A stretch of 64,000 bases of DNA, taken from Protoeuglena noctilucae. Its lineage: Eukaryota. The position numbers and the translations under genes are program-made. The notes under the pieces are model-generated. The model made no database searches and was not told where the DNA came from. It was given only the letters and a program-made list of their open reading frames with translations. The number at the start of each line of letters is the position of its first letter. Within the stretch, counting starts at the first letter, position 1. Location of the stretch: the NCBI GenBank assembly GCA_958009085.1, contig OY253683.1, forward strand, positions 806,001 to 870,000, written 5' to 3'. Positions 36 through 63,300 of this stretch are shown here, one piece after another.

Positions 36-3000
36 CCGCTCCAGTTCAACGTGCTGGTGACGACGTACGAGTTCGCCATGAACGACCGGTCGCGGCTGTG
101 CCGCGTGGACTGGAAGTACATCATCATCGACGAGGCGCAGCGGATGAAGGACCGCGAGTCGAAGCTGGCCAAGGACCTCGACAGGTTCAAGGCGTCGCGG
201 AGGCTGCTGCTCACGGGTGAGGGCGGGGCAGAGGGCGGGAGCTGCGGGCAGCTGCGGTGGCGGCGCGAGGCGTTTTAGCAAGGACGCTTGTCGCTCTCTC
301 TCCTTCTCTCGTGTTCCCGGAGCTTAGTACTGAATGTTAAGTAGAACACCGCACCGGAGGATAGCATAGCACGGCCCTTGTTCTGACCCAAGAAGGCCCG
401 CCCTCCCGCTGCAGGCACGCCGCTGCAGAACGACCTGCAGGAGCTGTGGGCGCTGCTGAACCTGCTCCTGCCGAACGTGTTCGACGACCGGAACATCTTC
501 ACGGACTGGTTCTCGCACGCCGGCGGGGGCGAGGGGGCCGCGGAGGACAACTGGGTCGAGAAGGAGAAGCGCATCCTGGTCGTGCAGCGGCTGCACCAGA
601 TCCTGGAGCCCTTCATGCTCAGGCGAGCCGGCGCGGACGTTTATGATCCAAATGCAAACCGGCGCGCGGGCGGGCGGGCCGCAGGTCGCGGCCGGGAGCC
701 AGCTGCACTTGGGCCCGCTCCCGGCCCACCCTGCGAGCTTGCAGGTTGTGGGCTCGTCTGGCGGGCCCATTTCCCTTTGCTGCGGCTTTTTAGACATTTT
801 ATTCGTCCACGCGCATCGATTTGAGTCCGCTCGGCCGCTTCTTACGGGATGTTGAGAACAGCGCGTTCTTTGCGTATTTTGGTTTTTTGCAGGCGTCAGG
901 TGGAGGACGTGGAGAAGAAGCTGCCCCCGAAGATTGCCGTGGTCGTCAAGGTCCCGCTCAGCGCCCTGCAGTCGAAGGTCTACGAGTGGGTCCGCGCCAC
1001 GGGTGAGGACTTGGTTGCTTTCGTGCGACGGGGTGCGGGGCCAGGTCAAGACTGATGCGCCTGCGATATATATGCAGCATGTCCCTGTGCGTTTCGCTCG
1101 CAGGGACGCGCCGCTGCGACCCGCTCAGCTACGACTACGAAAAGGCGCAGCGGCACGGCAAGAACTACACGAGCCTGCGGAACCGGTGAGGGTTTCGAGG
1201 CCGTGGGGAGACTTGCGAACCTAGTACTGAGTGTTTTGCTTCTTATAGAGTCAGTTTCAAGTTAAGTTCTCATGATCTTCGCCGGATCTGATCACGAGTG
1301 CCCTCCGCATCGCCTCCCCGCAGTATGGTGGAGCTGCGCAAGATCGTGAACCACCCCCTGCTGTGCTACCCCGACCAGTACGACGTGGAGGCGGTGGGGG
1401 TGGGGCCCAGCATCGTGAGGAGCTGCGGGAAGTTCTGGGTGCTCGACCGGCTGCTGGTGAGAGCTGCTTAGTTGGACGTGGTGTTAGTACGACGTTAATA
1501 TCGTCATCATCATGCTACCATCGTCACTTTCGATGAGGGCAACATAGATCATCATTAATCGCTATTCTGTCCCAGGTCAAGTTCTTCAAGACGGGCCACC
1601 GCGTGCTCCTCTTCACCACCATGACCAGCGTGAGTGTGCTTGTCGCGTCTTTGTTATTACGCATTGATGTGTAGCGTTCTTCAGCTATGTTTGCGATCGA
1701 GTACTGCCATCTAACTGTTACCATACTTACCATATCAATCATATTACTTTCATATTCGCAGTTACTGGACGCGATCGAGTATTACCTCAAGTGGCGCCGC
1801 GTGGACGGGCGCTCCATGCGCTACCGGCGCCTCGACGGCGGCACGGCTTTGGAGTCCCGCGAAGATTCCATCAAGGCGTTCAACGCCCCCGATTCCGACA
1901 TCTTCATATTCCTGCTTTCCATCCGTGCGGCCGGGAGGGGCCTCAACTTGCAGACGGCTGATACGGTCATTATCTACGACCCCGACCCCAACCCCAAGAA
2001 CGAGGAGCAGGCCATCGCCCGGTCGCACCGGTGAGTCATGAGTGATGAAATATGGTTTTTTTAATACTATATTGATTGGTAGATATCTAAGAACCAGGAG
2101 CAGGCCATCGCCAGGTCGCACCGGTGTATGCTAGGATATCAATAATTAATCAGTTATTCATCATGGATATAATTTTATTCTGCTCCCTGTCCCACCCACC
2201 CCCCGCAGCATCGGCCAGACGAAGGAGGTGCGCGTGGTGCATTTGGAGGCGGTGAGTGACAAGTCGAGGTTCCAACACGTCATCGACACGTATGGCGGGC
2301 CGGCAGCCACGGGGCAGGGGATCATGGGTGAGTTTTATCACCCATGTGTGGTTGTGTGGTTGTTACAATGGCATCGTAGCTTGCTTGTGTGATGCATGAG
2401 GGAATGGCAACCAGCCATTATGGCAGGGAATACTTTGTGAGAGGCGATTTGTAATTAATAGAGTCTTTTGTATTTCGTTGTTTCGCAGCGTTGGATTTCG
2501 AGCAGGGCAAGGGTCTGCCAGAGAAAGGGGCGGAGGGGCCAAAGGCCGAGGGTGGGGTGGGGACGGGTGGGGCGGGAGATGTGGTGGTGCAATGGGAGGG
2601 CGGGAATGGGGTGAAAGAGGGAGACGGGGCAAAGGGGGAGGGCGGGGAGGGGGCAGGAGATGGTGTGAAGGCTGAGGGTGGTGGGGATGGGCAGGAAGCA
2701 GAGGGTGGGGAGGGGGCGAGTGGGGCGGGAGCTGAGGGTGTGAAAGCAGAGGGTGGGGAGGGGGCGGGAGATGGGGCGAAAGAGGGGGATGGGTTGAAAG
2801 CGGAGGGTGGGGGTGGGGCAAAGGCAGAGGCGGGGGATGGTGTGAAAGAGGGAGATGGGGCGCAGGTTGGGGGTGATGAGGGGGCAAAAGAGGGGGATGG
2901 GATAAAGGTTGAGGGTGGGGCGGGTGTGAAAGAGGGAGATGAGGTGAAAACTGATGGTGGGGATGCTGTGAAAGAGGAGGGTGGGGTGGACGTTGAGGGT

Positions 3001-6000
3001 GGGAACAGGGCGAAGGTTAAGGGTGGTGAGGGGGCGAAGGTTAAGGGTGGTGAGGGGGTGAAAGAGGGGGATGGGGATAGGGCAAAGGGGGCAGCAGATG
3101 GGGGTGTGAAGGCAGAAGGTGGTGGGGGGGAAAGGGCGAATGGGGCAGTAGATGGGGCAGTGAAGGGGGATGGGGATGTGGAGATGGGTGAGGGGGAGGG
3201 AATGAGGGAGGGCGAGCCAAAGGGTTTGACGGAGGTGGGGATCGAAGGGGAGACGCAGAAAAGGGGCGAGGTGGAGGTGGGGATTGAAGGGGCGACCGAG
3301 CTGGCTGGGGGCGGGGAAGGGAGGGGTGGCGTGGTTGGGAAGAGTGGTGGGGAAGGGCAGGAAGTGGATAAGGATGGGGCAATTGCTGCGATTGCGGATA
3401 AGGTAGCGGTGGCTGATATGGGTGGGGAGGGGGCTGTGGCAGTCGGGGATAAGGGAGCGGTGGTGGGTGGGGGTGTGGTGGGGGAGGGGAGTGAGATGGG
3501 TGGTGCAGGTGTAGGTGTGGGTGCAGGTGTGGGTGAGGGTGAGGGTGGCAGTGCGAGGGATGGAGGTGTGGGTGAGGGGATGGAGGTGGATGGGGATGGG
3601 GATGGCGTGGCAAAGGGGGCGGATGGGGTGGGTGGGGATGCGGGGAATGGGGCAGGGAGCGGGGTTGGGGAGAGTGCAGTGGGTGGGGCAGCGAGGGGGG
3701 GTGATGAGGAGGGGATGGGTGCGGGTGCGGTGGGGGTGGTGGGGGTGGGTGAGAGTAAAGAGGGGGGTGCGAGAGAGGGTGGGGAGGGTATTGCTAATGG
3801 GGCAGATGTGGTGGGTGCAAAAGAGGAGGGTGGAGTGGGGAAGGTGGTTGTGGGTGGGGGAGAGGGTGGGAGGGGCGATCGGGTGGGGTTGGTGACGGGG
3901 GTGACGGGGGATGGGGATGTGGAGATGGGGGATTCGAAAGCTGTCGCGGCGAATGCTGATAAGCCAAATTCAGATATGGGTGATAAGGGAGCGGCAGGTG
4001 GGAGTGCTGGGGAGGGTGGGGAAGGGACGGTGGTGGGTGAGGGTGTGGTGGGTGTGGGTGAGGGTGCGAGAGAGAGTGAGAGGGTAGGTGGGGGAGAGGG
4101 GGATGTGGAGATGAAAGCGGGTGGCAGCGAGGGTGGCAGTGCGGGTGCGGGTGGCAGTGCGGGTGCAGGTGGGGGTGGCAGTGGGGAGGGTGGGAGTGGT
4201 GCTGCGAAGGGAGTGGGAGATGGGGTGCAGGTGGCTGAGGGTGGATTAGGGGACAAGCGAGGGGAGGGAGGGGCGAAGGAGGGTGGGAGTGGCGGTGCGG
4301 GTGGGAGTGGTGCGGGTGTGAAAGAGGGCGGGAGTGGCAGTGGGGGTGCGGGTAGGAGTGGGGCGGGTGTGAGAGAGGGAGAGGGGGCGAGAGAGGAGGC
4401 TAGGCGGACGGAAGAGAGCAAAGCGACGTACGAGGTGAGAGAAAGGAGGGGTGTGTGAGCGATTGTGCCACTTTTCATACAGTATCTAATCTTATGGTGC
4501 TGGTCACCACCGTTTATTGTTATCTGATGTTATGCTGACATCAAAGTCTAGTTAGAGTCATAGTTACTGGTATCGTCAACTAATAATACTATTTTCCCCA
4601 TAATCCCCAGTTCCGCGAGATCACCGTCAAGGACGTGCACGTGGAGGGCGACCCCGGGGAGCCGATTGGGGGATCGAATCGCGACTATGTCGACAGCGTG
4701 GAGAGCATCGTCCGCAATTACGTCCAGAAGGGAAAGATCGAGTTGGCCGCCGAGGTCATTGACGCCGGGAGGTTCGACACGATCGCCAGCAACGAGGACC
4801 GGCGCATGACGCTGGTGAGTAATTGGTGATAATGTATAATGATAATTGTAGTGGATTCTGTTCTAGCTAAAGTCATTGTTGTCTTGATGGTGGCCAGCAA
4901 CGAGGACCGGCGCATAACGCTGGTGTGAGTGGTCGATGGAGGTACTACTTACGACAATTAAGTTGACAGTCATAGCCATCAAAATTGACTGATCATCTCC
5001 ATCGCAGGAGCAACTGCTTAATAGCGCGGCCCGGCAGATGATCCCCACGCGCGACGTCCCATCTCTGAAACAGCTGAACCGCATGGTGGCACGGACGCCG
5101 CAAGAAGTGGAGCTCTTCGGTGAGTTATAGCTGATAATTAATTGATATGTATTAGTAAATATTGAACTGTCATGGTGGCCAGGACGCCAAAGGACCCCAG
5201 GAGGTGGAGCTGTTCGGTGAGTTATACAGGTCGAGTATTGTTCAAGTTATAACAGTTATTACTAGTTACTGCTCTGTCACTTGACAGCCACTTTTATAAT
5301 TAGAGTTAAAGTGATGACTGTCAATCCCAGCTATTATTAAATAACTGTTACATCTCCGTACCGCAGACAAGTGGGACGAGGAGCTGGAGTGGCCGGGGGC
5401 ACTGATGGCCGAGGACGAGCTGCCCACGGCGGTGAGCATTGCGAAATGTGATGGTTAATCTATAATAAAAATAAGATGTAACTATTTACAACGGCATCCA
5501 CTGCCCCCTCCAGGCCCCCTTCGTGCTGTTCGAGCAGCACGACATGGTCAACATATACTATCAATACTAATATTAATACTAATAATCCCATATTATTCCC
5601 TCTTATCACAGGCCCCTTTCGTGCTGTTCGAGGAGCACGACATGGTCAACGCCATCCGCGCCCACGCCCCCCTCCCCCGCCGCAACCCCCGCCCCGCCCA
5701 GGCGCCCGGGGCCATCCGCCCACTGCCGCGACCGAAGGATTCGAAGCCGAAACGTCCGGGGCAGTTGGGGGGGGCGAAGAAGGGGGGGGCGAAGGGGGAG
5801 GGGGAGGGCGGGGCGTTTGGTGGGTTCTTAGGGGGGGCGGGGATGGAGGTGAGGGGGTGGGATGGTGGATGGGGTGGTATTGGTAATGGGTTGGAGATGG
5901 GTTGTTTGGCGTAGCAATTATCGCTATCATTGACGTAAGTTATAATTGATTATAATTATTGCAATTATTGTAACTGATTACTGCAGTTATCTTAATTATT

Positions 6001-8191
6001 GTAATTTTAATTATTGTAAGTATTATTAATTATAATTAATTTTTACAATCTCTCTCACCATTTCCCCTTCAGGTGGAGATGCTGGACGCGGCCAATCTGG
6101 CGGACGCGGTGGTGGCGGGGATGAGCCGGCCGACCGAGGACGAGAGGAAGGCGCAGGTGATGGTTGTGATGGTAATAGTTACAATTATAGATATCGATAT
6201 AGAGAATACCCCTCTATATGGATGATCCACAAAACTCCGCATTTTTTTACCCCAGAAGCGCAAGCACGTGTTGGACGCCACCCCCGCCGAGGCCCAGCGG
6301 CAGAGCAAGCGCGCGAACGTGGCAGAGCAGAGGGCAGCGGTGGACGCCAAAGTGCAAGCGGAGAGAGACAAGGTCCGGGCGAGGGAGGAGGCCATGAGGG
6401 AGGCGCAGAGGAGAGAAGAAGAGAGGAGGGCGGCCAGGGTGAGTTGCAGTAAGTGAAGTTTGTTCGGTATAAGTGGGGTAGGGTGCAGCGGAGCTTCGCT
6501 AGCGCCAGTGGAATGTGCGTATATATAATTTTTGCTATTACTACTATCTTATCATGTAATCCTTCCATTCCCTCTCTCAGGCCGACCAGCCAGCCGCCGA
6601 GGAGGAGGTGGCCTGGGACGAGGGGTTTCTGGCGGCGGCCGCGCCAGAATCCAGCTCCGAGAGCAGCTCGGAAAGCAGCTCCGAGTCGAGCAGCGGTGAG
6701 TGGGGATATGTTGTTTTATACATTTCGATTGTAACTAGTATGACGGTGTTATGAATATGGATGGTTGAGCTCCAAGAGCAGCTCCGAGTCGAGCAGCGGT
6801 AAGACGGTTGGGGTTGAAATAATTGTGAATATTACATATAATTTGTACCTTATTGTTCATTAATTTTTTATATTCTGATAATTTTGTGCTCTGTAAAATG
6901 ATATTAAATATTATTTTATGTATCTAAAAAAATTAATGAACCCCTTCGCTCACCCTATTCTGCAGGTCTCGGGGACGTGGTGTTGGAGGAGGAAGGGGAA
7001 GGAGATGGGGAGCCGGGCACCGTCAGCGTGGAGAGGGCGGGGAGCGACAGCGGGAGCGACGCAGGGGGGGGGTGAGGGGGGTTGGGGGTATGGAACCTTG
7101 ATAGTATTTCGTAATTTATCGTGTTTATATCTCCTATTCATGGGTCGTAATATGTTGGTGTGTACAAGATGTACGCGACGCTGGGCAGTGAATATTGTTA
7201 TTATTGTTATTATTGTAGTTTTATATACAATGCCGTTTGTATCATTATCGTTCTCTCGCTCACCCTCGCAGTCCCCCCGTTGCGGCGGGGGAGGGTGGGG
7301 CATGGGATGAGGCTTTGGGTGAAGAGGAGATGGGGGGCGGTATGGGGGATAACGATGACGAGGGGGGTATGGTTGATAACAATAATGATATATCAGATGA
7401 TGAGGATGATGGTGATGATCGGGAGAGGGGGGGGGGAGGGGGTGGATGGGGGGAGTGAGGGGGATGAGGAGATGGGAGGGGCGGTGGGGGTGGGGAGTGA
7501 GGGGGGGAGTGATGTAGATGAAGAGATAAGGGGTGGGGATGGGGAGAGTGATGGGGATGATGAGATAAGGGGGGGAGAGGGGGAGAGCGAGGGAGGGAGT
7601 GAGGGGGAGGAGATTGGGGGTGGGGAGGGGTGGGAGGAGGAGGTGGGGGGAGAGGTGGAGGGAGGGGTGGAGATAGGTGAGAGGGGGGGGTGGGGGGGGG
7701 ATGATGAATGGACGGTGCTTTCATGACAGTTTGTGTTGATATGAATGACTGGGTTGTGTAATTGGCGTCTGCTGCATCGGTCGTTTGCTACCAAATGAAT
7801 GCTTGATTGCACTATGACTTACTTTAACTAATTACCATATCAATTGCCCATCATTAATAATTGATTATCGATCGTCATTGCCCGCGCAGGCGATTTCGGT
7901 GGCTGCGCTCCCCCCCTGCCATTGGCGGATGTGGGGGGGGAGGGGGAGGGTTATGGGTTTGAAATGGAGGGAGAAGCTGCGGGTGAATTTGAAACGGGGG
8001 AATATGAGGATGGGGAGGGGGATGAGGATGAAGGGGATGGGGGGGGTGAGGAGGGGGGTGTGGGGTATGTGGGGGTTGAGGGGGAGGGGTATGAGGTGGT
8101 GGGGGGAGAGGGAGAGGGGCAAGAGGGGGATGTGGAGTTTGAATTTGATGAGGGCGGGGAGGATGGGGAGGGGGATGAGGGGATGGAGTGA
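36..8191 (+). CDS. BRM: BRAHMA-like SWI2/SNF2 chromatin-remodelling ATPase (5' end upstream of window; multi-exon)
   Basis: Spliced exons give [135 protein letters not shown] and [20 protein letters not shown] and [12 protein letters not shown] are characteristic of plant BRM. The acidic 3' exons are less certain. Confidence 0.9.
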
Positions 8192-8242
8192 GGGTGTGGG
8201 TGGTGGCGCGGCGTGCGTGTTTGTGAGGTGGCTTGCCAAGCA

Positions 8243-8247
8243 TGTAA
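8243..8247 (+). promoter_or_regulatory. TGTAA chlorophyte-type polyadenylation signal (BRM); similar signals at 8421-8425 on the minus strand (DET2) and 21443-21447
   Basis: TGTAA lies a short distance downstream of the predicted stop codons. UGUAA is the established chlorophyte polyA signal. Confidence 0.5.
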
Positions 8248-8548: not shown

Positions 8549-10414
8549 TCACAGCACGAACGGCACCAGCGCCTTTCGATCCTTCGGATAGGTCTCTTTG
8601 AACTTGCTCAGGTACCACTGATGGTGGTGGAGGGCGCGTGGTCCGATGTTGGCCCACGTGAAGAGGGAGAAGGTGACGGCGGGGAGGGAGAGACCTGTGT
8701 AAAGGGGATGAGGGGTGAAATGGTGGGTGATGGTGGGTGATGGTGGCCCAGGTGAAGAGGGAGAAGGTCACAGCTGGCAGGGAGAGACCTGGGAATGAAG
8801 TGGTGGGGTATGCGTGCGTTAAGAGACAAACAAGGATTAAGACAACTCTCCCCTCACCGGCCGCCCATACATACGAAGACCCATACCCCCGTCTCACCCG
8901 TGGCCACCGCGTACCCCGTCCACTCCACGCACTCCCCGAAGAAGTTTGCGCCAGAAACGTACTCGAACATCCCTCCCCGGGGGATCTTGTACCCGTCCCC
9001 CGGCAGGCGGCGCAGGCGGCGCAGGATGGCGTCGGAATGGAGGTTCACAAGCAGGCCGGAGAGCCACAGCACGAAACTGCAGGGGAGGGGGGGTGGCGGT
9101 AAGTGAGTAGTACAGAAGCTGTGAGGTGGAGTGAGTGCAAGGGGGCTGTTGGGCACCAAAAGCACCACCATATGTATTGCCAGTACTAACACCGTTCAGC
9201 ATGGCAGCATTGGCAATCCGCAACATAAACCCCGCCCTAACCCCGCCATACCCCTACCCATGCCTCCTCACCCCCCAACGAGCGCCTCCGTCGACACCTT
9301 GAACGGCGTGGTGAGCAGGGTGCCCTGCAGGTATCCGTTATACACACAGAACGACACACTCATTGCCCAAATGGATACGGGCATGGGGCGGCTGCTGGGG
9401 TTCATGAGGAGGGGGTAGACGATGCTGCGCTGGACGTAGTGGCCCAGGAACATGCACGCGAGGAACCTGGGGGTGTGATGGGGAGAGATAGAGATAAGAT
9501 AAGATAAGATGCCGATGGAAAGTTGGTGTGTGGTACGTTGCTGCGAAAGCGTGCGGTTGGGACGCTGTCCCTTCGCTCATCTAATAAGCAAACGGTCATG
9601 ATAATCTGATTCTTATTCGATACTAATGCACCGACGCAGCATATCATAGCGACAACCCTGTCTGCGCTCACTTGTGGGTCCAGGGGAGGTCGAGGCCCTG
9701 GAAAGCAACGCGGTGGGCGATCATGCCGAGCGGGATGACCAGGGACCAGATCTCCTGCGATTGCAAATCGGTAGGTTTAGTTGTAATGAAGAACAATTGC
9801 AAATAACAAGGATCGATGGGGGACCGCTCGATGGCATGGGACGGCGCAGCGACATTTCCTCTCAAACATCGCCATATGTTATCCTCCAAACCTCGTGCAT
9901 CCTTCACCTGAGAGAACCACGCAAGGCGCGCGTCCATGTCGATGCCCCAGCCCTGGCGGTGGTGCTTGCCGTACGGGGCCGTGATGCCGAGGCATAACGC
10001 CACGCACGCCGCTGCGGGCGAGGCGCGGAGTAGGGCGCAATCGACTCATTGTGCCTATTAGTAGGCAATCATCACTACGATTGAAACTCATGCCACTCAC
10101 CGACGCCGGAGAGCATCAGGATGTAGCAGAGGGCGGAGAAGGTGGGCGTGTACTGCAATGGGGAACTCAATTATGCTACGGTTATGTCCGATTTGCACAG
10201 TAGGTCAACAAGCAGACATCGCGTTGCCGGTGCAGTCAAAGGGGAGAGGAGCGGAGCGACGGGGCTGCGGAATGTTTGCGGTGAGCCGCGTGGCTCCTCC
10301 CGCCAGCCGATGGCGGAGACAGCAAACACGTCGACGTAACGACAGCAGACTCACCAGCGGGTGAAGGGTGGCGAGCCGCTCGAGGAGCGTCTGGACCGCT
10401 CTCGGCGCTGCCAT
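8549..10414 (-). CDS. DET2: Steroid 5-alpha-reductase (DET2/SRD5A family)
   Basis: Exons encode ITAPYGKH..ARLAWFSQE, FLGHYVQRSIVYP, FCVYNGYLQG, NLHSDAILRRLRRLPGDGYKIPRGGMFEYVSGANFFGECVEWTGYA and NIGPRALHHHQWYLSKFKETYPKDRKALVPFVL*. Confidence 0.92.
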
Positions 10415-46550: not shown

Positions 46551-47665
46551 CGCGCGACCCGCGATTCATTCCGTGATAGTCACACATTATGCGAACGCAA
46601 CCCGTAGCACCGCCTGATAGTAATCACAGCGCTGTCCAGTTTTTCCACGGACACGAACTTTTGGCTTTAGGAACTGCTTAGCTCTCCCCAGTGCGGCTTC
46701 CGTGCACTGCCCGCTCCAAGTCTTGCAGCGTCGATTGCAGTGTTTGGGCGTTGGCTCCCGCGCTGGCTGCAGTGGCGCGCGCAAAAGGATTGAACAAGGA
46801 TGTGTCTTGTCCCGGCAGCTCTGGCCGCGCATCGCATCCCCGGGACGGCCCTCGACACGCGGTTGTAAAGCGTGCATGCGGCTGCGGGGTCGCGCGGCCA
46901 GCGGTCCCGTCGCTGGGTCGGGTTTGCCACGTCAGTGTCCTGCGTGCAAAGGTGTGCCCCTAAATGGCGGCCGGACCCTCGCGTCAGGCGGGCGTTCGCA
47001 CGCTTGACTGGCTCACTGTGCCTCGTGCTTCTTGATCGCCGCTGTCGACGCTCCCTCGTCGCCGTCGCCTCGCCCCTGGCTGAACGCAGGTGGGTGGGTC
47101 CCCCGGGGGCGAACCGCGCGGGCAACTCGATCGTTTCGGTGTCGATTGCGCGTGGAGAGAGCCGCGGCCGGCTTCGGTGTCGCGCTGACGCGCGCTGCCA
47201 CGTCCGCGACGATTCCGCGCGCTGGCACACTTGATGCGCGTCTCTTTACCCCCGACTGCCGTTTCCGAAACCGTGCGCGCGTGTCCCCGTCGCCCAGCGC
47301 CCGTGGCGATCCCCGCGAGCTGCAACGGTTTCGTTGAGCCGTGCACCCACCCCAGCCCACCCGCGGCATCCCACCCCTCGCCGATGGTATCATGTGATAT
47401 ATGACGTTTCCGATCGGCCGCGGTTCGATCCGCCGGGGCTTGCACGGGCGCGCCCGGGAGGGTTTCCATGCGCGACACCCGGATGCGCCTGCCCCGCCGT
47501 GCCCCCGCCCCCGTCCTGTGCGCCTCCCCCGCCGCCGTCCACTTTTCTGCGCCAGACGCCTGCTGACCGTCTCGGGTCCGCACCCCACCGCGTCGGCGTG
47601 TGACGAGCCTCGCCATCGCTCCTCGCCGCAGGTCCGCGCGCCCCTACGCCCGCGTTCCGTCCGCC

Positions 47666-52005: not shown

Positions 52006-53858
52006 GGGGGGGGGAGAGGAGCAAGGGGGTGTGCGGGGGTGGGAGTGGGGGTGTGGGTGCGATGATGGTGCGGGTGGGAGTGCAGATGTGGACACAGCTG
52101 CATTGCGTTATGTTGTTGGGCTGTGGGCTGTTGGGTGCGGGAGCTGTTTGTGTCTCTGCAAACAGTTAACCATGCTGCCACGCGCCGCCCGCCTGCCCCG
52201 CGGCTTCGTGCTGTGCCATCGTCTTTCGTGCTGCAGCGCCGCGCCTCGCATTTGCCTCTAACAACCCGCGCCCCTAGCTGCGGCGATCCTGCTGGCTTCG
52301 GCGGGACTGGGATTTGAAAGAGGGGGGTCCTGAACGAAGAACACGGCTGGTCACTTTCCTGATACGGCGACTCTGACACAGGCATGTGACCAGCACAGCT
52401 GGGGAACGAGAACAGCTCAGCAGTTGGGATTCTCGACCCCCCTGCGTGTTCGCGGATGCTGCCAGTCACGTGTCGTGGCAAGAGAATCGAGTCTTGCTGA
52501 AGTTGATCGGCTTCACAGCATTTTGGTGCGAGTGTTGATATGTCACGGTCGCATATGATGCACGACGGCGCAGCTTTGAGGCTAGGCAAGCAGAGCTAGG
52601 CATGGGCATCTCGTCTAAACACTAGTACTAATTAGTCGACTACAGTGCTAGGACACATCGTGAAACGCAGCCATCACCTACGCATGGGCACACGCTAGCG
52701 GACGGAACGGAGGTGGCAATTGGGGTCGGTCGGGGCAAAAAACCCCAACCCACGCCGCGCCGGGGAAACAGAGGCCGGGCAGAAAGGGGGCGACATCAAA
52801 AGGGGGGGCGGGGGCGGGAACGGGGGACGGGGCGGGAGGCGCGACACGCGCGACACTGACGGCGCGGCTCAGAAAACGCCCCGCCCGCCCGTCGGAAAAC
52901 GCCCCGCCCGCCACAAAACGCCCCGTCGGGAGCGCCGGCCGCGAGCAAGGGATGCACGGGTTGTCTAAGCTAGGTGCAACGGGGAGGCTCGATGCATGTC
53001 TTGCATGGTGCGCTGTTGCAGGGTGCACGTGCGCGTGCGGGTGCTTTCGCAGCCGCAGGCGAGAGAGGGGGCAACGACGGCGCCGGGATGGGCCGCTGCG
53101 ACAAGGCGAGCCGGGCGATTGCGCGAGCACGGCGACGGGGTGAGCACAGCGCGGTCACAAAGCACGCTCGCACAGCACAATTGCAAAGCGCGATCGCAGA
53201 GCACGGTCCGGGAGTGCGGGTGGGCCGTGGGTGCGCCGGGCGAAAGGGCCAGGTGTCCCTCTCCCCCACAAACGAAGATGGGCTGCTCAGAAAGGCCCCC
53301 CAGCACCCCACCGATGCCGATGGGTGTCGTGGGGGCGTCGGCGGGCTTTGAGCCCCAAAAGCGCAAACCCGGAATCGCAAACCCGGGATCGCGAGCGCGA
53401 GAGGGCGAACCCGACAGGGCAGACGCGCCGCTCGCTGGGAGCGGCGTGCGTGCAGGTGCAGCCCTGGGCGCGACGAGGGTAGGCGGGGTCAAACCCAACC
53501 CACCCATAGGGCACCCGGGGAGCGCCCGAGAGGAGCGGCGGCGCGGGCGGCGCGAAACCGGGGCGGCGGCGGGTGGAAAAACGGGGCCCCGCGGGCGTCG
53601 ACATTGTGTGGGGTGCCCGCGCCGCCGCGCGCCGCTGCAATGCTAGGCAGAGGAATGCACAAAGGGTACAGGCGGGGCGGGTAGCGGTCTCCCTCCCCGC
53701 TGCGATGCGGCACGCCCGCGCGCAACTGCTCCTTGGGCCGGGCCGGGTGCAGGTGGCAGTGCTGGTGGCAGTGCGGGTGCGGGTGCGAGTGCGGGTGTTG
53801 GCGAGGCAACTGCACTCATCCCGTTGGGGCAGCGTGGTTGTAGTCAGACGGTTCGCGA

Positions 53859-55351
53859 TCAGCATAGGTGGAATTCCCCTTCCTTGCAGTCGATGACCGT
53901 GACGTCGCTGTGGACGATGCGGCTGCCGGCCTCGTTGGCGTAAAGGCCCCACTTGGCGCACCCCACGATGACGGTCCCAAGCACCGTGGCGCTGCGGGGG
54001 GAAGGGAGAGGCGGAAGTGGTGGTGAGAGGCATTGGGCGGGAGCGAGGGCGGTGGGGGGTGGGGGGGTGCAAGTGAGGCAGTGGGATGGGGAGGGAGAGA
54101 GACAAAGGTCGGCGGTTGCACGGTGTGAGCCCGGCAGTAGCACCCTTGCACAGCCGCGCCCACGCACTGCCACCCCCCTCACCGTGCGCCGAACTGGCAC
54201 AGCACGCCGCTGCGCTTGGCATCCCCGATGCGCCCGCCCCGCAGCACGAGCTCGCTGCCCTCGCGCAATGCGATCGCCCCGCAGCTCCTGGGAGATCGGA
54301 TGTCCACGCCGTCCGCCTCAGCCCGTGCCCCGCCCTCGCACACGATACCGTGCCGCCCCGCGTTCTCGATCACGCCGCCCCGGATCAAAGCCACGGCGCC
54401 CTCGCCCATTGCGCACACGGCGCTCTGCGGCGCGTCGCGCACCGCGCAGCTCCGCATCTCCAGCGCCCCGCCCGGGCTGACGTGAATGCCGGACCGGTGC
54501 ACCTCCACGTTCTCCAACACGAGCGAACCGCCTTCGACGACGCGCAGCGCGAAGCCGCCGCCGATCGCGATGTTCTCCGCGCGTATCACGCCGTTGCGCA
54601 TGAGCAGCCGCGTGGAGACGACCACCTCGTCCGGCAAAGGGACCACCTCGCCCCGCAAGTCGATTTCCTGGATAGATGCCGGGGCGACGGGCGGACGGGC
54701 GAGTGGAAGAGAAAAGGCGCCAGTCGGCTGCGGCGGCGGAGGCGGGGGCGGCGACGGTGGGCGCGCGCGGGAGCGGGTGTCAGCGTCGGCGAGCGGCGGC
54801 GGAGGGCTCACGTGGAGTCCTGCGAGCGTCTGCTGGGAAAAGGACGGCATGAGGAAGGGCGACGTCGCAGGCGTCAGCACGCGCCCCAGGTCGCGCGGGA
54901 GGGGCGGGTGCGGGTTGTGGGCGGCTTGCGCATGCACGGCTGCCAGCTGCATCTGGAGGTCCGCGACCTCCCCCTCCAGCTTGAGCACGCGGCGCGACAC
55001 CTCCGCCTGGAAGGCCGCGAACTTGAGCGCGAGATCATCGACGCGCGTGGGGGTTAGGGCGTTGCCAGGAGGCGCCTGCGGAGAAAGAAAGGGGGCGCGT
55101 CGGGGCGGGGGACCGATACTTTCCGCGCACAGGGCCCGGCGATGCAAAAGAAGTGCTCGCAGCGAGTCGGGCCATCGCGGGGCGCCGGGCCCCAGGGGCG
55201 TGGCGTGACAAGCTGGCGCGCCGGCGGTTCGGCCCGACGTCGGGCGCCACACCTCCGTGGGGGATCTCCTCGTCGCGTCCGGAGCAGGGAACGCGAGGCG
55301 CTGCACAATCTCCCTCTCCAGGCCAAGCACCAGCGGGTCGGACGAGGCCAT
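53859..55351 (-). CDS. Right-handed parallel beta-helix protein with N-terminal coiled coil
   Basis: Coiled coil (FQAEVSRRVLKLEGEVADLQMQL), a Pro-rich linker, then PbH1-like repeats: SLVLENVEVH, LEMRSCAVRDAPQSAV, IRGGVIENAGRHGIVC, LRGGRIGDAKRSGVLC, VLGTVIVGCAKWGLYA. Confidence 0.7.
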
Positions 55352-55481
55352 CCATGCCCCAAACGCCGCCGGTTGCGGCCCCCCCGTCGATCGATGTGTT
55401 TCAAAACTGGGGTCGCGGCGCGGCGCGGAGCGGAGCTTAGCCGCGCGAGAGCGAGATTCGGTAAAAACCTCCCGAGGGTTT

Positions 55482-58126
55482 TCAGCCCAGCTCGAGCGCC
55501 TGCGCCAGCAGATCATCGCTCCACCCCGCCGCCTCGACCGCCGAGAGCGCATCGGCCCTCGGGCGCTTCCGCGCGTCCAGTTGCGCCGATTGCAGCTGCA
55601 CGCCCTCCGAATCGACGTCCCTCAGAAAGTCCAGCGTCTCAACCCACGCCCAGGCCTCCCGCAGCGCCTTCGATCCCAGCGGCATCTCCGGGCTCCGAAA
55701 TCCCCTGCAGTCCGGGCGCTCATGTCATGGGCGGCACGTCAGAGAACAATTCAAAGCGTTGTTGCCACCCGGGCCATGGGGATGACAACGACTCACATTA
55801 TCCTCTCAGGCCTCACCTGCAGTCCGAGTCGTGGCATCGCTGCGACCATGTGCCCCTCCGCAGCGCCACGGCGTAGTAGACGCGGTTGCTGCGGTGGTGC
55901 CGCCCCACGTGGTGGCAGAAGCGGCCACCCTGGACGTCCAGGGTCAGCGTGGCGTGCGAGGCGTCCGCAGACAGCGACCATCCCGACACGGAGCACTGCG
56001 GGAGACGACAGTGGGCATGGGGATGGGCATGGTCTGGATTGTCAATGGCGCGTGGCAATCAGCGGGGGTCGGTGGTGGGGCGTGCAGAGGAGGGGCACGG
56101 ACACAAACGCCAGGGCAGATGCCCAGTGCAGTGCAGTGCAGACACGCGCCTGTGTCGGGAACCACTCCCTTACGAAGCCATGCACCATGCGACACGCCCA
56201 CCCACCACCGCCCCGCCGCAAGCCCCAGCTCTCACCGGCACGCCGTGCTGGCTGGCCACTTCGGACACGAACGCGTCCACTCGCGGGAACGGCGACGGGC
56301 CCACTCCCCGCGCCGCCACCTCCCCGCCCTCGCCCATCGCTATCGGAATGCCCACCCCATCCGCCCCCCGCGCCAACCCCCCGCACCCCGCACCCGCTGC
56401 CACCCGCCGCCCCGCCCCCTCCATTTCCAGCACCCGCAGCCGCGCGCCCGGCAGCGCCGCCTCCTCCACTGCGCTCGCCATCGTCGCCCGCAGCACCTCC
56501 AAGCACGGCCCCCGCCCCTCGCAGGGATCGAACCCTGAACCTGCCCCGTCCTTTTTTACCACCCACCGCTGCAGCCGCGCCCCCGCGTACCGCCCCGTGA
56601 CTCTCAGAACGGCGTCCTTTTTGAATTTGGAGCTCCCCGCCAGACGGAAGGTGCGGTTGCGTGTGTAGACGCCCATATCCACGAAACACGTCGTGGCACC
56701 GGCGTCCGCGCACACGGCGAGGTCGGGGGGGAAGGGCGCCCGACGAGGGTGAGGTGGCGGGGACGCGGAGGTGGTGGGTGCCGGTGTTGGTGCAGGTGTT
56801 GGTGTCGGTCGTTCGCACGACGGCGTGCTCGTCTCTGATGCCGGTGAAGCTCCTGGCTCCCCCACACCCGCACCTCTACTTCCTTCCTCCCCCACACCTT
56901 CGCCCCCACGCTCACTTGCCGCCCTTGCCAAGGCCGCTGCCGCCAGGGCCCCCACGTGCGCATTGTCACGGAACGCAGCGCCAGGCACGCGCACAATCAC
57001 ATGCCTCGAGAACTTGTCTGGGGTGCTGGAGTCGAGTTCGTACACACAACTGTCGGGAGGGACCTGGGGGGGAGGGCAGGGATGGGAGAGGATATATGAA
57101 AGGTTGGCCTCGCCTGCGCCACCCACAACATTGCCTGCCGACCCCATCGCCACCGCGCCCATCCCTCCTGCACCCACCGCAGCCCTCACCTGTACCCCAA
57201 ACCGCCTCTCCATCTCTTCCAGCATCAACCGCACCACCCTGCCAGTCATGGCGTCCCCGTCGCGACCCTCGTTAAACGCCCGCTTGTATTCCAGGTCCAG
57301 GTACAGGTGACAGGGTCGATTCTCGCGGATGACCTCGTAAAAGTGGCGGCGGCCGGGGGGGCGCGCCTGCATGCGGGAGAGGGCCGAGGCCAGGGCGCCC
57401 AGCATCACCCGGCGCTTGCCTGCAGGCGATGGGGTGTGGGGGGAGAGTGATGGAAGAGCAATGTGAGAGTGGTGGGGAGAGTGATGGTAGAGAAATGAAA
57501 GAGTGGTGGGTTCACAAACCATGGGCATGCACACGTATGGAATGCTCAGCTGCACCCTCGCCCGTCCCCCCCACCTCCTCCCCCAGACTCGCATCGATGT
57601 TGGATGTCAGACTTAGTTCAGTTGTGTTCTTGTGACATAGTTCGAATCCACAGCTGCACCCTCAGTCACCTGACTCCCCCACCTCCTCTGCCAGACACAT
57701 CTCGCTTTCCCGCTGGGCCTCTCCCCGCGCGTCCCACGCCTGAAACGCCAAGTGCTGCCGGGGGAAGATCGACACATTTCCACACGCCCGCTGCCCTTCT
57801 CGGCGCGCCTGCAGGTGCGGCGGACGGGGCAAAGCTGCGCCTGCTATCCCACTGCACTGCGCCGCTCCTGGCTGCGCCTGCAGTAGCCCTCGCACCTTCT
57901 TCAGCCGCTCCCGCGCCTCCACGGCAGTCACGTCATCCTGGAGGAGGAGCTTCCTGCACGATCCGGACCTGCGGGTGCGCGGGCGAGCGGAGAGCTAGCC
58001 GGGTCTCGTGAGTGCAGCGACCGTGCGTCCTCCCGAGGATTGATGGTATCCGGCGAGTCCTCACCCGTAGAAATCCAGCTCAGATATCTCTGCCGGTGAC
58101 GCCGGCTCGTCCATAGCCGCGACCAT
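55482..58126 (-). CDS. PRIMPOL: DNA-directed primase/polymerase PrimPol
   Basis: HFYEVIRENRPCHLYLDLEY (DxE), LDSSTPDKFSRHVI (SxH), FVDMGVYTRNRTFRLAGSSK, and the C-terminal Zn finger RFCHHVGRHHRSNRVYY..QRCHDSDCR. Confidence 0.95.
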
Positions 58127-58579
58127 CGAGCGTCGGCAGCGACCGGACTGGGTGCGCGTCAGCAGAACCCGGCGCCACGGCCTCGGAACGGCCGGAGCGT
58201 CATTGCTGTGTAAAGCAGCTTTTGACCGCAAGCAAATGGGCCTACGGCAGCGGTCTGTCGAGCTCCCCGCTTTAAACGCAGGACGAAGACAGACTCGGCT
58301 GGTTCTCAATTGGCGCAGTGGATGTGAAGAGCAGCGCAGGGGTGCAAGGAAGCTGTGAGTTACTTTTGCACGGCTGAACTTGAACGCGTCAGCCAACTGC
58401 CAGCCAACGCCAGCCTTAGGGCAAGCCTCCATAATCCAGGGATGCGCATTTCACGCTGAGATTCCCACTGACAAGAGAAGACATGAATAGTGATGGCTTT
58501 CAGTCCCCGTCCTATCGCTTAGCGTCGCCACTCGCTGCGAACGGATCTCCGCTGCAGACAGCGCTCCTCAGCGCGCCCG

Positions 58580-60164
58580 ATGCTCGCCGAACACGATGAA
58601 GCCGGCACGCGCTCCCACCAAAGCAACGAGAACCCGACCAGCACGTCTTCCCGCCCGACCATGTGAGGCTGCGCGCGCGCTCCCGTCGCTTCCGCTCCGC
58701 ACAGCGCTCGCCTGCACCCGCCGCGCTCCGCTCCCGCAGCGCGCTCGACGACTACGCCGTGACAGGCCCTCTTCGAGACGTCTACTACGTTCCCGACTAC
58801 CTCTCCTGCGCGGAGGAGTCCGCGCTGCTCGATGCGGTGCGAGCTTCGCACTCCTGGGTGGCGCTACGCAACCGTAGGCTGCAGAACGTGGGAGGGATGG
58901 TGACGGCGAGCGGCCTCGTGCCCGCGCCGCTCCCCGCCTGGGCGCGTCGCGTGGTCGAGCGGCTGTCGCGGGAGCTGCCGGGGCTGTATGGGTCGGGAGA
59001 TGCCAACCACGTGCTGGTGAACGAGTACATGCCGGGGCAGGGCATCCTGGTGAGTAGCTGTTAGGGGATTGTCTGCCAAAGAAGGGTATGCCAACGCACC
59101 TCAATGCAGTGTTGTCCTCCCAACCACACTTGGCACATCTCTCGCAACTCAGTCGTCATTGCCTCTTTGCACGCTCAACTTCGTAACACCCCATGCACTA
59201 TGCCCCTTTGCAGCCCCACGAGGACGGCCCCCTGTACTTCCCATCGGTGGCAATCGTCTCTTTGGGGAGCCCCGCGGTGCTGAGATTCTATCCGAAACCG
59301 AACGGGGACGATACGTTGGCGGGATTCGATCCGAGACCTGCTGCGGACGAGGCAGAGGGTGTGGGGGGCAGCGATGGTGAAAGAGTAGGTGCGGGTGGTG
59401 TGGGGGGTAGCGGTGTTGACAGTGGTGGTGGCAGAGTGGCTGCGGGGGGCAGTAGTGGCAACAGCAGCGGCGACAGAGCAGCTGCGGATGGGGCGGCGGG
59501 GATGTCAACGATGGCAATGGGTGGGGCTGAGAGACATAGTGCGGGGCCGGGGCCTGGCCGCGAGATGCACTGCGCTGTGTCGGTGTCACGGAGCGAGGAC
59601 GACGGTGGGCGCAGGAGTGGGTGCGTGACGCACAGCACGTTGCCGCAGCGTGTGCACGGCACGTCGCCCGTGCTGTCGGTCGTGCTGCAGCCTCGGAGCC
59701 TGTTGGTGTTCCGGGGCGCTGCGTATCGTGAGGCGTTGCATGGGATTGATGAGACGCATGTGGAGGTGCTGGATGAGACGGTGGCGAATGCGGGGGTGGC
59801 GGTGGGGGCGAGTGGGGGAGTGGGGGTGGGAGAGGGGTTGGCGAATGCGGGGGTGGCGGTGGGGGCGAGTGGGGGAGCGAATGCAGTGAGAGAGGGGGTG
59901 GTTGTGAGAGAGGGGGTGACGAGTGCAGGGGTGGTGGTGGGAGAGGGGGTGACGGTGTGTGGGAGTGGGGGACTGGTGACGGGAGAGGGGTCTGCGAATG
60001 CGGGAGAAGGGTCGCCGACATCCACAAAACAGGGGTCAACGATGATTAATGCGAATGCGGGGCCAGGGTTGGGATTGGCCAGGACGGGCGCTCGCGTGTC
60101 ACTGACGGTGCGTCGCGTGGAGAGGGTGGTGAGGGCGATACGGCTGGGAGGGAAGCGAGGGTAG
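58580..60164 (+). CDS. ALKBH6: AlkB-family 2OG-Fe(II) dioxygenase ALKBH6-like
   Basis: [91 protein letters not shown]. Confidence 0.92.
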
Positions 60165-60365
60165 TTCGGTTGTTGATTGAAGGCTACGTTTGTCGGCGTG
60201 TGTAGGTCTTGTTGCACTTGTTGCAATTGGTGGTGGGTTGCTTGAAATACGCACCCAGTGCCAGCGCTGTGCACGCCGTCGATCAGCTCTCTCAGTGCCC
60301 CCTCCCCTCTTCAAATGCCGATAACAACACACAGTACCAACAACAACACACATCGCCATCGATCA

Positions 60366-63300
60366 TCAATGCCCCCCCCCCCTTTTCAGTGTGGACAGCT
60401 CCAGCGCCGTGCACGCCATCGCCAGCGTCTCTACGGGGATCTCCTGGCTCCCCCACGCCACCGCTAACAACGAGTACACCTGCTGCACCACCTCCCGCGG
60501 CACCCCGGGCATCTGCTTGGTGGTGATCTTGAGCAAGTCCTGGCGACCTGGGGGGCGGGAGAGATAGGGGCGAGGGAAGCATCGCACGATTGGGGTACTG
60601 CGTTGGAAGCACGAGGGGGGTACCGACGCGCACCTCACGCGCGCTACATACACATCTTAACATCTACATCTCCCACACTCCCCTCCACACACACACCCGC
60701 AGCCCCCCCCCCTCCACCCTTCACACCCCTTCACAACCACCCAAAAAAAACCTCACCCATCGCCCTCCTCCCCGAGCTGTCCTCGGCCACAAACACGTCC
60801 AGCCACCTCACGTACCGCGGCTCGCTCCTCACGAGCAGCTTGGATGCGAAGTACTGCAGCACGCTGTCGGCCATCTGATCGGATCCATAGGTGTCGTCGA
60901 ATTCGTCCAATATGCCGTGGCGCTCCATCTGTTTTATGTCGGGGTAGAGGAGCTGAAGAATGTGCTGTGGGGAGGTAATAAGGGGAGGGAATGTGCTGTT
61001 GGGGGCAACCGGCTGTTCTCACCACCTCACCGTCCACCAGCACTGACAAACTGCCACCCACACCCACACTGCCACCCACACCCCTCACATCCCCACACCC
61101 CCATCCCACTCTCACCTCGAAGTCCGTGTGGCTCTCCATGCGCCCCACCTCTCTCTCAACACTGATATACATAGTTATATACATAGATGTATGAATCCAC
61201 ACTATCTCATCCCTGATAACCCCTCTCACCTCAAAGTCGGTGTGGCTCTCCATGCGCCCCTCCATCAGTCGCTTGATCTCCACCAACGACCACCACATGG
61301 GCTCCTCGACCTGGTTGCCCAGCGCTTTCGCGGACAGCTCCATGACTGCAGTAGATAAGGGAGATAATGGGTAATGGGTATTATATAACACCCCACATCC
61401 CACCCCACACTCCCCCACATCACACCCACCCCACACCCACCCCACACCCCCACAACATCCCCCCAACCCCTCACCCGTGTCGTCCGCCCGCGCCCTCTCC
61501 ACGCCCATCATCACCCCGTGCATCACCAGCAGCGACACCTGCCGATTCCCATACAGCTGCATCAGACACGCCAGCAAGTGATCCGCCAATGTCTCCCTCC
61601 TCTCGCTCCAATGCGTGATGGCCTCGAACCCCTCCAGGCCCTCCCCCACGTTCACGCGCGTCAGTTTCGGGTCCATATCCTTGACATATTTGCTGCGCAT
61701 CGTTCCCAGCAAGTGTTCCTTGGCTAGCTCGGGGCGGACCAATCGGGGGACGCGGGGGTGGACCTCCTCGGGGTCCTCGCACTGGAATTATCAGATAAAA
61801 GAGAGAGTTGTTTGATTGATAATTGGGTAATAGCATATGAGCTGTTATATATGTATGTTACTGAGGTACTGTGTGGGTAGTGCAAGGGGGTGGGTGAGGA
61901 ATGCTATACTACAATTATATCTGTTGCAATCATCCAAGCACCCCGCATCCACCCACACTCACCTTTGTGATGTACCCCGCCCACATCGGGTCCCCCCCCG
62001 CCGGCCCAATCGTCACCCCATCACGCTTGCCCGCAGAGACCTGGGGATGGAGATGAACGGTGGAATGGCTGTCTGACTATATCAGATATGCTTAGAAATA
62101 CATATGTAATGATATGCACCGTCCAGCCCACATCGCACACCCACTATAGTCTATACACCCACTTACCCCACTACACCCACCTACACACCCACTCCACACC
62201 CACCACCCCCTTCATCACTACTCTCACATCCCCCATCACTACCCTCACCTTCCTCATCTCCTCCTTCCTCTGCTGCGCCCTCGTCCACCTCGCAAACGCC
62301 TCCAATTCATCACACATCACACATCACACACATCCCATTCACTACTCTCTCTACTATTCTCACCTTCCTCATCTCCTCTTTCCTCTGCTGCGCCCTCGTC
62401 CGCCTGGCAAACGCCTCCAGTTCGTCCGGCCGCACCATCAGCCCCGCTGCACTCCTCAGTATTTGTGCTTCCAGCTGCACCTCGGAAATGTGCTCTCGCA
62501 AGGTCGTCAGCTCCCCCTGTGCCAACTCGATTTCTTGAAGGAACTCCTCGCGCAGTCGGTCAATCTGGGGGGGGGGTATGAGAAGGGGGGAGGGGGTGGG
62601 GGTGGTGGGGTGAGTGGTAGCGCTGCAAGACATGCACACAATCCTATTGTCCACAAACATCAACCACTCTCGTTCCACTATCATTTCAAATCCCCCACCA
62701 CCCATATCTCCTCACCTTCACGTCTTGAACGCCTCCCCTCCCACACACATACTGACCATGCCCAGTTTCACAACTACTTCTAATATTACCAGTATTGCGA
62801 ATATTATTTGTCAATTTCCACTTCCAATCTCCTCACCTTGGCGTCCCCCTCCATCTTGAACGCCTCCCCGCACACCGCCCGCACCCCCATCTCCGCCACC
62901 TGCCGCTCATACTTGTCCACCCGCACATTCCTCAACAACAAGAGCTGTTCGGCTAATTTACTCGCTTCCCCGGCCCCCAGCCCCAGCGCCTTGTCTCTGG
63001 CCGCAGCTTCCTCCCCCACCCGCACCGCCACCGCGTTAAACGCCCTTCTGGCGATCTCCTCTTGCATAGACACGCCCTTGTACTGCTGCAGCTCGATCTC
63101 CATGCGGCCGATCTGGGGGAGAGGGGGGGGCAAATGGGAGGGGTTGGTTTGTTAAGTGTTCGTGCTTCTTTAGTGGTTATCATTTTAATCACATGCCGCA
63201 TGCGACTCGATCTGGGGGGATAAAGGAGAAGGGGAACTGTTGTTTAGTGTTGATGATGATTCGAGCGACAAAGACGGCTGCAACTTTGGACCTATCCAGT

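Follow-up and report, generated by a model that had tools for sequence, protein, structure and literature searches.

Why would introns hold second copies of the edges of their own exons, splice sites included, and why would the two copies differ mainly at silent codon positions? This question is raised by a stretch of 64,000 nucleotides (nt) from Protoeuglena noctilucae (assembly GCA_958009085.1, contig OY253683.1, positions 806,001 to 870,000 of the forward strand), referred to throughout as the window, in which a first-pass annotation had listed 16 introns with such copies. We refer to the intronic copy as the echo and to the exon-joined copy as its source. It is secure that the echoes reflect small rearrangements across the exon-intron junction that are tolerated through use of the outer splice site. 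As to what these rearrangements were, we tentatively favour, well short of conviction, a reading in which the echoes are inert scars of junction-spanning repair or duplication, with eight pairs fitting a local copy and nine fitting a diverged functional homologue as the template.

The 16 listed introns contain 18 echo copies, as two entries hold two each, and every copy aligns to the source proposed for it within a few bases, with an ungapped identity of 85-98% over 22-65 nt. Ten copies are donor-type (exon end plus 5' splice site) and eight are acceptor-type (3' splice site plus exon start). The echo is always a direct repeat on the gene's own strand, and such genes lie on either strand of the window. 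Two weaker pairs were found beyond the original list, and the arrangement as a whole, a junction-spanning direct repeat inside the adjoining intron of the kind described for human F7 (see below), is present in the 16 listed introns and in both additional pairs. The first gene of the window encodes a SNF2/BRM helicase whose best named relatives are from green algae and plants (69-79% identity), and Pfam or homology searches also support a steroid 5-alpha-reductase (DET2), a protein kinase and an MA3-domain protein. These four of the names first given to the host genes therefore stand, the zinc finger is weakly supported (E 0.009, under the cut-off), and the labels 'Srx-like' and 'coiled-coil' were not confirmed. 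Window G+C is 52-71% per 2 kilobases (kb), and the introns are short, low-complexity and either A/T-rich or G/C-skewed. The sequence occurs in marine metagenomes as well as in runs labelled with a coded organism name and, given the relatives of the BRM helicase, the organism is a marine green alga. The pairs are listed here with their offsets in nt.

Source 1996-2033 (exon end plus GTG), spacer 2034-2088, echo 2089-2126, plus strand: donor-type pair in the BRM/SNF2 gene; offset 93, 36 of 38 bases identical, one synonymous and one nonsynonymous difference.
Source 4785-4817, echo 4893-4925, plus strand: donor-type, BRM; offset 108, 32 of 33 identical, no synonymous and one nonsynonymous difference.
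Source 5083-5129, echo 5172-5226, plus strand: donor-type, BRM; ten intron bases in common (GTGAGTTATA), six synonymous and no nonsynonymous differences, an 8-nt insertion in the echo.
Echo 5511-5552 (CAG plus exon start), spacer 5553-5608, source 5609-5650, plus strand: acceptor-type, BRM; offset 98, 40 of 42 identical, one synonymous and one nonsynonymous difference.
Source 6665-6700, echo 6768-6803, plus strand: donor-type, BRM; offset 103, two synonymous and one nonsynonymous difference, donor GTGAGT in the source and GTAAGA in the echo.
Source 8645-8697 (start of the last exon), echo 8739-8791, minus strand: acceptor-type, steroid 5-alpha-reductase (DET2-like) gene; offset 94, five synonymous and one nonsynonymous difference.
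Echo 13222-13245, source 13289-13312, plus strand: acceptor-type, zinc-finger-like gene; offset 67, 23 of 24 identical, the sole difference turning a Cys codon into Ser in the echo.
14684-14705 (23 nt inside the exon), copy 14780-14801 adjoining TGAGTGG, plus strand: additional weaker pair; offset 96, 20 of 22 identical, outside the codon counts.
Echo 25632-25673, source 25728-25769, plus strand: acceptor-type, unnamed gene; offset 96, 41 of 42 identical, one synonymous difference.
Array 25806-26046 with source 25806-25851 and echoes 25902-25946 and 25997-26041, plus strand: same unnamed gene; 2.5 units of 95-96 nt, the first spanning the exon end.
Echo 45726-45760, source 45796-45830, plus strand: acceptor-type, protein kinase gene; offset 70, three synonymous and no nonsynonymous differences.
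Echo 49353-49404, spacer 49405-49454, source 49455-49506, plus strand: acceptor-type, MA3 gene; offset 102, five synonymous and two nonsynonymous differences, in RNA-confirmed intron 49194-49456.
Source 49527-49588 (exon end plus GCGAGTGAT), echo 49646-49707, plus strand: donor-type, MA3; offset 119, 61 of 62 identical and then unrelated flanks, in RNA-confirmed intron 49580-49878.
Source 50447-50484, echo 50560-50597, plus strand: donor-type, MA3; offset 113, three synonymous and no nonsynonymous differences, in RNA-confirmed intron 50479-50847.
51315-51336 and 51410-51431, plus strand: additional donor-type pair, MA3; offset 95, 21 of 22 identical, no synonymous and one nonsynonymous difference.
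Echoes 51575-51607 and 51650-51676, source 51772-51804, plus strand: acceptor-type triple, MA3; offsets 197 and 121.
Source 61223-61260, echo 61109-61146, minus strand: donor-type, the gene first called 'coiled-coil'; offset 114, 36 of 38 identical, two synonymous and one nonsynonymous difference.
Source 62359-62423, echo 62244-62308, minus strand: donor-type, same gene; offset 115, 61 of 65 identical, four synonymous and one nonsynonymous difference.

Several of these loci have features of their own. The BRM source at 4785-4817, together with the first intron codons, is also found in 17 public contigs, and the BRM pair at 5511 has unrelated flanks and a spacer with its own pyrimidine tract and CAG. 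Four of the five synonymous differences of the DET2-like pair (Pfam Steroid_dh, E 2.9e-16) fall in consecutive codons. In the MA3 triple, both echoes read CTG where the exon reads CTC, and each echo has one private nonsynonymous change. The array at 25806 is a mosaic laid out as exon a with intron a, exon b with intron a and exon b with intron b: units 2 and 3 are 99% identical, in its exon part unit 1 shows four synonymous differences, one nonsynonymous difference and a 1-nt gap, and the intron parts of units 1 and 2 differ at 1 of 55 bases.

We scanned the window for repeats that are not of low complexity, at least 22 nt long, at least 80% identical and 30-400 nt apart. Direct repeats at this distance numbered 25, of which 19 rows are echo pairs (the 62244 pair was dropped by the filter) and the other six are tandem or G-rich arrays; the same scan returned no inverted repeats, and direct repeats in five other 400-nt distance bands numbered 1, 0, 1, 0 and 0. 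These controls indicate that the echo pairs are not due to chance. When the criterion was relaxed to 23 matches in 30, the only additions were repeats at 24133 (offset 139) and 33898 (offset 54) and known tandem arrays, so that there is no visible tail of older echoes, though indels could hide some.

Could the pairs instead be two haplotypes or strains that an assembler joined in series? The idea has some initial appeal, as the window may stem from a metagenome and the copies resemble two alleles, and it predicts that source and echo should be unjoined in independent, unscaffolded assemblies. We compared the contigs of four public runs with positions 44000-63000 and found single contigs holding both copies in two of them, a run carrying an organism label (X4) and the metagenome of a separate sample (X6). 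Each of these two runs yields a 3,433-nt contig (46146-49578) with 0 differences that holds both echo 49353-49404 and source 49455-49506. The X4 contig 45403-46114 spans both copies of the 45726 pair, likewise with 0 differences, a 139-nt X4 contig (49559-49697) bridges source, spacer and echo of the 49527/49646 pair, and an X4 contig piece (50247-51703) spans both copies of 50447/50560; X4 contigs also cover the 51315/51410 pair and the echoes at 51575 and 51650, and X6 contig 61839-62596 spans the 62244/62359 pair. As these contigs are unscaffolded, the order of source, spacer and echo is present in the reads. In addition, four database proteins originating from ENA assemblies run on from the exon at 62368, past its donor, into the same spacer as in the window, and a spacer-to-echo junction should be impossible in either separate haplotype. 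Given that separately built contigs from two runs agree in order with 0 differences and at single-copy depth, we regard an assembly artefact as scarcely credible.

We next asked what splicing makes of the duplicate sites. An RNA contig common to two metatranscriptomes provided ten listed exon-exon joints, all in the MA3 gene, on which the following results rest. Three of them (49191>49455, 49575>49875 and 50477>50847) span echo-bearing introns of 263, 299 and 369 nt, and in all three the outer, exon-joined splice site is used and the copy is removed with the intron; the seven echo-free MA3 introns among these joints measure 104-542 nt (median 179). No use of an echo splice site was seen among these ten of the 65 joints. 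The intron at 49580-49878 is a confirmed GC-AG intron with the donor GCGAGT, and the same unusual donor is repeated in its echo. We infer that outer-site use and removal of the copy extend to the remaining echo-bearing introns, and on this view the gene survives because the spliceosome picks the outer site and excises the copy. The alternative that echoes are retained in frame and translated via the inner site was rejected, as 6 of 17 periods are multiples of three, which equals chance. We state an echo rate for the ten RNA-confirmed introns only, since the 207 introns (both strands) returned by an ad hoc predictor were plainly excessive and were discarded. RNA contigs from the two metatranscriptomes also match the window up to 50016 and 62276 and then continue into sequence absent from it; the contig end at 62276 lies inside an echo, and as both ends could reflect a branch in the assembly graph, a different transcript or a related gene, they were not used as evidence.

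The differences between source and echo carry most of the information on origin. Reading frames were taken from open frames with a third-position G+C of 0.73-0.90, together with Pfam or homology evidence. The first-pass annotation had put roughly three-quarters of the substitutions as synonymous by hand count, and our count bears this out: 39 synonymous and 15 nonsynonymous differences over 18 comparisons (one synonymous difference being counted twice), or 38 and 14 over 17 independent pairs. Per site, synonymous divergence (pS) over the 17 pairs is 0.289 and nonsynonymous divergence (pN) is 0.031, a ratio of 9.4 compared with 2 under a neutral model, and the 52 differences are split 10:7:35 by codon position. 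Random single changes in the codons concerned would be synonymous in 22.5-24% of cases. Our neutral model, in which the exon edge is duplicated locally, the intronic copy decays freely and the exon accepts silent changes only, predicts 37-39% synonymous differences; the observed 38 of 53 (the 52 plus one nonsynonymous change of the second echo in the 51575 triple) departs from this with P = 1.4e-6 to 2.3e-7. Thus, neutral decay of ordinary tandem duplications, which the annotation had named as the outcome that would speak against it, does not account for the set as a whole (P about 1e-6). At third positions where the copies differ, the echo has A/T in 9 cases and G/C in 14, and the remaining 12 are C-G swaps, indicating that the echo is not decaying toward the A/T-rich composition of introns.

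The pairs are heterogeneous. Eight have low synonymous divergence (pS at most 0.18), with 4 synonymous differences over 52.7 sites and 7 nonsynonymous differences over 187.3 sites (7.6% versus 3.7%), and this group, defined by a post hoc split, fits the 2:1 ratio of a neutral local copy. The other nine (pS 0.34-0.69) have 34 synonymous differences over 78.7 sites and 7 nonsynonymous differences over 266.3 sites, or 43% versus 2.6%. The two groups do not differ in nonsynonymous divergence. At the level of sequence, the high-pS pairs thus carry the signature of two sequences that have both evolved as coding: divergence of 43% at silent and 2.6% at replacement sites implies that both copies lived as coding sequence and excludes intronic decay alone. 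Two other causes of the bias were considered and rejected. CpG decay is at odds with 12 of the 35 third-position differences being C-G swaps, and gene conversion between the copies would be expected to favour the survival of nonsynonymous differences. As a separate observation, the nonsynonymous differences are distributed overly evenly, with twelve of the 17 echoes having one, four having none and one having two (dispersion P = 0.99, high side).

These figures bear directly on the possibility that all echoes arose locally within one genome, through minisatellite-type duplication, templated end-joining insertion or template switching at splice-site-like microhomology, in which case the synonymous excess would reflect some unrecognised mundane bias. 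We consider this unlikely, though it is a serious contender. The pooled synonymous excess, the nine pairs with a pS of 0.43 and a pN of 0.026, the G/C kept at echo third positions and the C-G swaps all count against it, and gene conversion, which might be invoked in its defence, would prolong nonsynonymous rather than synonymous differences. In its favour are the eight of 17 pairs at the neutral 2:1 ratio and the abundance of minisatellites with units of 12-95 nt in the window (74 rows), with the 25806 locus itself being a plain 95-nt tandem array.

The anatomy of the pairs lends a purely local origin further support. The repeat measures 22-65 nt and, in simple pairs, the spacer about 35-80 nt (54-58 nt in four pairs), and together they give a period of 67-121 nt, in most cases 93-119, which is less variable than either repeat or spacer alone. 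Into the intron, the repeat extends 2-11 nt beyond the splice junction. Where introns measure 100-250 nt and the duplicated unit about 100 nt, a duplication that reaches into an intron should in most cases span its junction, so the association with exon edges would need no special targeting or mechanism. The first-pass annotation had described the intronic flanks of the two copies as usually not alignable, and indeed 13 of 18 comparisons are no more alike than mismatched-pair controls; only 25806, 49353, 51315 and the two echoes of the 51575 triple stand out, the last three being of low complexity. Here, too, a local origin has an answer, since pasting a copy about 100 nt away would make the spacer and the remaining intron consecutive parts of one intron, hence unrelated to each other. 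In a shuffling test, the spacer resembled the start of the remaining intron only in 25806, 49353, the 51575 triple, 62359, 5083 and 51315. A search for the source of the spacers, local or distant, on both strands of the 64-kb window found none beyond the 25806 array's own units and low-complexity matches. Clear head-to-tail units that include a repeated intron part occur only in the 25806 array, with a partial case in 49353. Acceptor-type spacers hold their own pyrimidine tract and AG and thus constitute a working intron end. An origin of the pairs as mutually exclusive exons was also considered and rejected, as the exons in question are longer than the period of about 100 nt.

The condition of the echo splice sites bears on a different proposal, which the annotation had offered as its alternative, namely that echoes are maintained as decoy or helper splice sites and are selected at every base, such that the silent sites of the exon drift away from them. 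This proposal likewise predicts mostly synonymous differences, little A/T drift of the echo and unrelated flanks; all eight acceptor-type echoes retain a pyrimidine tract and AG, most donor echoes retain a usable GT or GC, and the oddly even nonsynonymous counts, with exactly one in twelve of 17 echoes, also accord with it. It is nonetheless weakened by two echoes with frameshifting indels (+8 nt and -1 nt) and by several echo donors that are weaker than those of their sources (GTGTAT, GTGTGA and GTAAGA). Furthermore, the pairs with the fewest synonymous differences, which would be the youngest on this proposal, already have unrelated flanks; selection would have to act on every base of stretches of 22-65 nt, which no known role should require; and the ten RNA joints include no use of an echo site, though transcripts made in this way might be degraded. 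On balance, we judge maintained decoys to be improbable. Inspected by eye, the 8-nt insertion of the echo at 5172-5216 would amount to exactly three codons (Lys-Asp-Pro) had a single C been lost from a run of Cs, which is weakly suggestive of an in-frame coding variant.

A layout of repeat, unrelated spacer and repeat also brings mobile elements to mind. Introners are said to be intron-generating transposons (Gozashti et al. in 2022), and the spacers could in principle be small introner-like elements with the repeated exon edges as their target-site duplications. The four spacers of 54-58 nt fit such a proposal, as does the BRM locus of a relative from JGI metagenomes, described below, which suggests that few or no A/T-rich introns exist there and that many were gained in the window's lineage. 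The spacers, however, have no significant similarity to each other or to the rest of the 64-kb window, the 25806 units and low-complexity matches excepted, and a repeat length of 22-65 nt is unlike a fixed short target-site duplication. One repeat boundary always lies at the splice junction, and a target-site duplication is identical at birth, leaving the synonymous excess unexplained. We therefore hold a mobile-element origin to be very improbable. The Pelagomonas genome paper (PMC9481584) does offer a parallel in that it concerns marine picoalgae with many lineage-specific introns, and literature leads on Pelagomonas and Chloropicon had otherwise no bearing on the window; introners would differ from the present case in that the window spacers include no repeated family and no fixed short target-site duplication.

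We return to the reading that we favour, in which the echoes are scars of repair or duplication across the junction. Each event would have added about 100 nt to an intron, placing a copy of the exon end and splice site inside it. About half of the pairs would be plain local copies of their own exon edge that have slightly decayed, and in the other half two diverged functional versions of one gene would have been joined out of register; such versions could be very divergent alleles or the homeologues of a past hybrid or duplicated genome. For the latter half, the sequence of events may have started with a break in the exon near the junction, after which the broken end would invade the diverged homologue and be extended by about 100 nt, past the exon edge and into an intron without counterpart on the broken chromosome. 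End joining in place of re-annealing would complete the event, and unequal exchange would give the same product. As a result, the working exon edge and intron end would be replaced and the old ones stranded in the intron. Copying of about 100 nt past the exon edge into an unmatched intron would explain the constant period, the repeat boundary at the junction and the working intron end that accompanies each copy. The mosaic of two exon-edge versions and two intron-start versions in the 25806 array speaks for this reading as well. A homologous donor also predicts a pN much lower than pS, as found overall and most strongly in the nine divergent pairs; both the donor and the repair route are deduced from such patterns.

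A number of points weigh against this reading. The split into two groups was chosen post hoc, and over-dispersion of synonymous differences is marginal (P = 0.058). In a BLOSUM62 test, the nonsynonymous differences did not stand out from random changes as more conservative (P = 0.21). For the most part the intron flanks show no relation, with 5 of 18 above controls, instead of being about 30% diverged as expected of homologous introns, and to leave 17 scars in 64 kb, repair with a diverged partner would have to have occurred many times. The contig comparison covered the pairs between 44000 and 63000, with ten pairs at 1996-26046 lying outside that range. No donor turned up where one was sought, which favours a purely local origin: the X4 and X6 contigs contain no variant letters at 90% likeness or above, a threshold that a copy diverged by about 10% could escape, and a collection of 5.8 billion proteins, searched with the exons at 4602-4814 and 62368-62600, returned only identical or one-residue variants. 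The sole relative in JGI metagenomes (L001 1-10207) is distant, at 72% protein identity, and is without echoes. Its BRM locus has 71% G+C and no A/T-poor islands on a composition map, which suggests that the A/T-rich introns in the BRM gene of the window are confined to its lineage.

The first-pass annotation had inferred that exon edges were copied in from a divergent allele, in a process of ongoing splice-site replacement and intron turnover. Its appeal to a divergent allele agrees with the synonymous excess beyond neutral local decay, the absence of A/T drift and nine of the 17 pairs, and does not extend to all echoes, as the other eight fit a plain local copy. Its description of the process as ongoing lacks support, since neither a donor nor variants were seen in the contigs and proteins searched, and if our reading is right the events are past. 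One step further, the echoes could preserve, as fossils, repair events that took place between two diverged genomes while these occupied one nucleus, be it that of a hybrid or duplicated ancestor or one with an unsampled divergent haplotype. We consider this broader proposal possible but doubtful.

How do the echoes compare with known systems? Hellsten et al. in 2011 reportedly described intron gain by tandem genomic duplication, and Gao and Lynch in 2009 are said to have described internal gene duplications. The nearest described case that we found is intron 7 of human F7, which contains a 37-bp minisatellite whose first unit lies across the exon 7-intron 7 boundary, and in which splicing takes place at the donor furthest upstream, the one joined to the exon, and the identical pseudo-donors downstream are silent (Borensztajn et al. 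2006, PMC1557585). Direct repeats with an exon end and donor inside an intron are common to both cases, the 25806 array is exactly of the F7 type, and the outermost site is used in three of the three echo-bearing introns among the listed joints. Unlike F7, which is a single locus with near-identical head-to-tail units, the window has at least 16 such introns in 64 kb, mostly with unrelated spacers, and it also contains acceptor-side versions and copies whose differences are mostly silent.

Proposed routes of intron gain provide further comparisons. In one of them, an exon segment containing AGGT undergoes tandem genomic duplication (PMC3443670); there, as here, a small internal gene duplication is tolerated since splicing removes the extra copy, but that route creates a new intron from a duplicated exon, whereas in the window the intron pre-exists and only the exon edge and splice site are repeated. 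Intron transfer, in which recombination between homologous genes moves an intron, is among seven routes proposed in the same paper. It resembles our favoured reading in that a diverged homologue donates an intron end with adjoining exon sequence, and differs in being a clean replacement, whereas here an out-of-register join would leave the old edge behind and the donor is deduced. Intron gain by break repair (PMC3443670) likewise involves direct repeats that flank inserted sequence at introns and are ascribed to error-prone repair of breaks; these are short gap-filling repeats, unlike the repeats of 22-65 nt in the window, which include the splice site and lie in pre-existing introns. As described, none of the compared systems features many introns with exon-edge copies differing mainly at silent sites, and our literature search brought up no account of exon-edge copies that occur window-wide and are biased toward synonymous differences, although such an account may still exist in print.

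Intron turnover is poorly understood, as is the finding that introns can be unrecognisable between close relatives whose exons are conserved. If the echoes were indeed left by repair with a diverged copy of the gene, they would form a record of these events that can be dated and counted; they would uncover a hybrid past in a picoalga that is globally uniform, and would mean that a splice site and its intron end can be replaced as one unit. Should the record of two genomes prove true, each scar would mark where one genome's working exon edge and intron end gave way to those of the other, and such module-wise replacement would explain unrelated introns beside similar exons. Even the plainest reading leaves at least 16 introns in 64 kb with silent duplicate splice sites, including three of the ten RNA-confirmed MA3 introns, so that this organism offers a natural setting in which to study how the spliceosome chooses between identical neighbouring sites; echo splice sites are also a warning for gene predictors.

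Some other repeats of the window deserve mention. Among its minisatellites, the array at 20912-21135 contains 4.4 copies of a 51-nt unit at 100% identity and must therefore be very young; similar arrays lie at 45300-45438 (45 nt, 3.1 copies, 96%) and 46085-46181 (43 nt, 2.3 copies, 98%). A (TACTAT) microsatellite of 16.7 units at 13483-13582 fills most of a short, A/T-rich, intron-like stretch 3' of the zinc-finger exon. Finally, 2 kb of G-rich sequence in BRM (2455-4458; GC skew 0.66), with one frame open for 667 codons and imperfect repeats of 18-42 nt, probably encodes a low-complexity, Gly/Glu-rich protein region.

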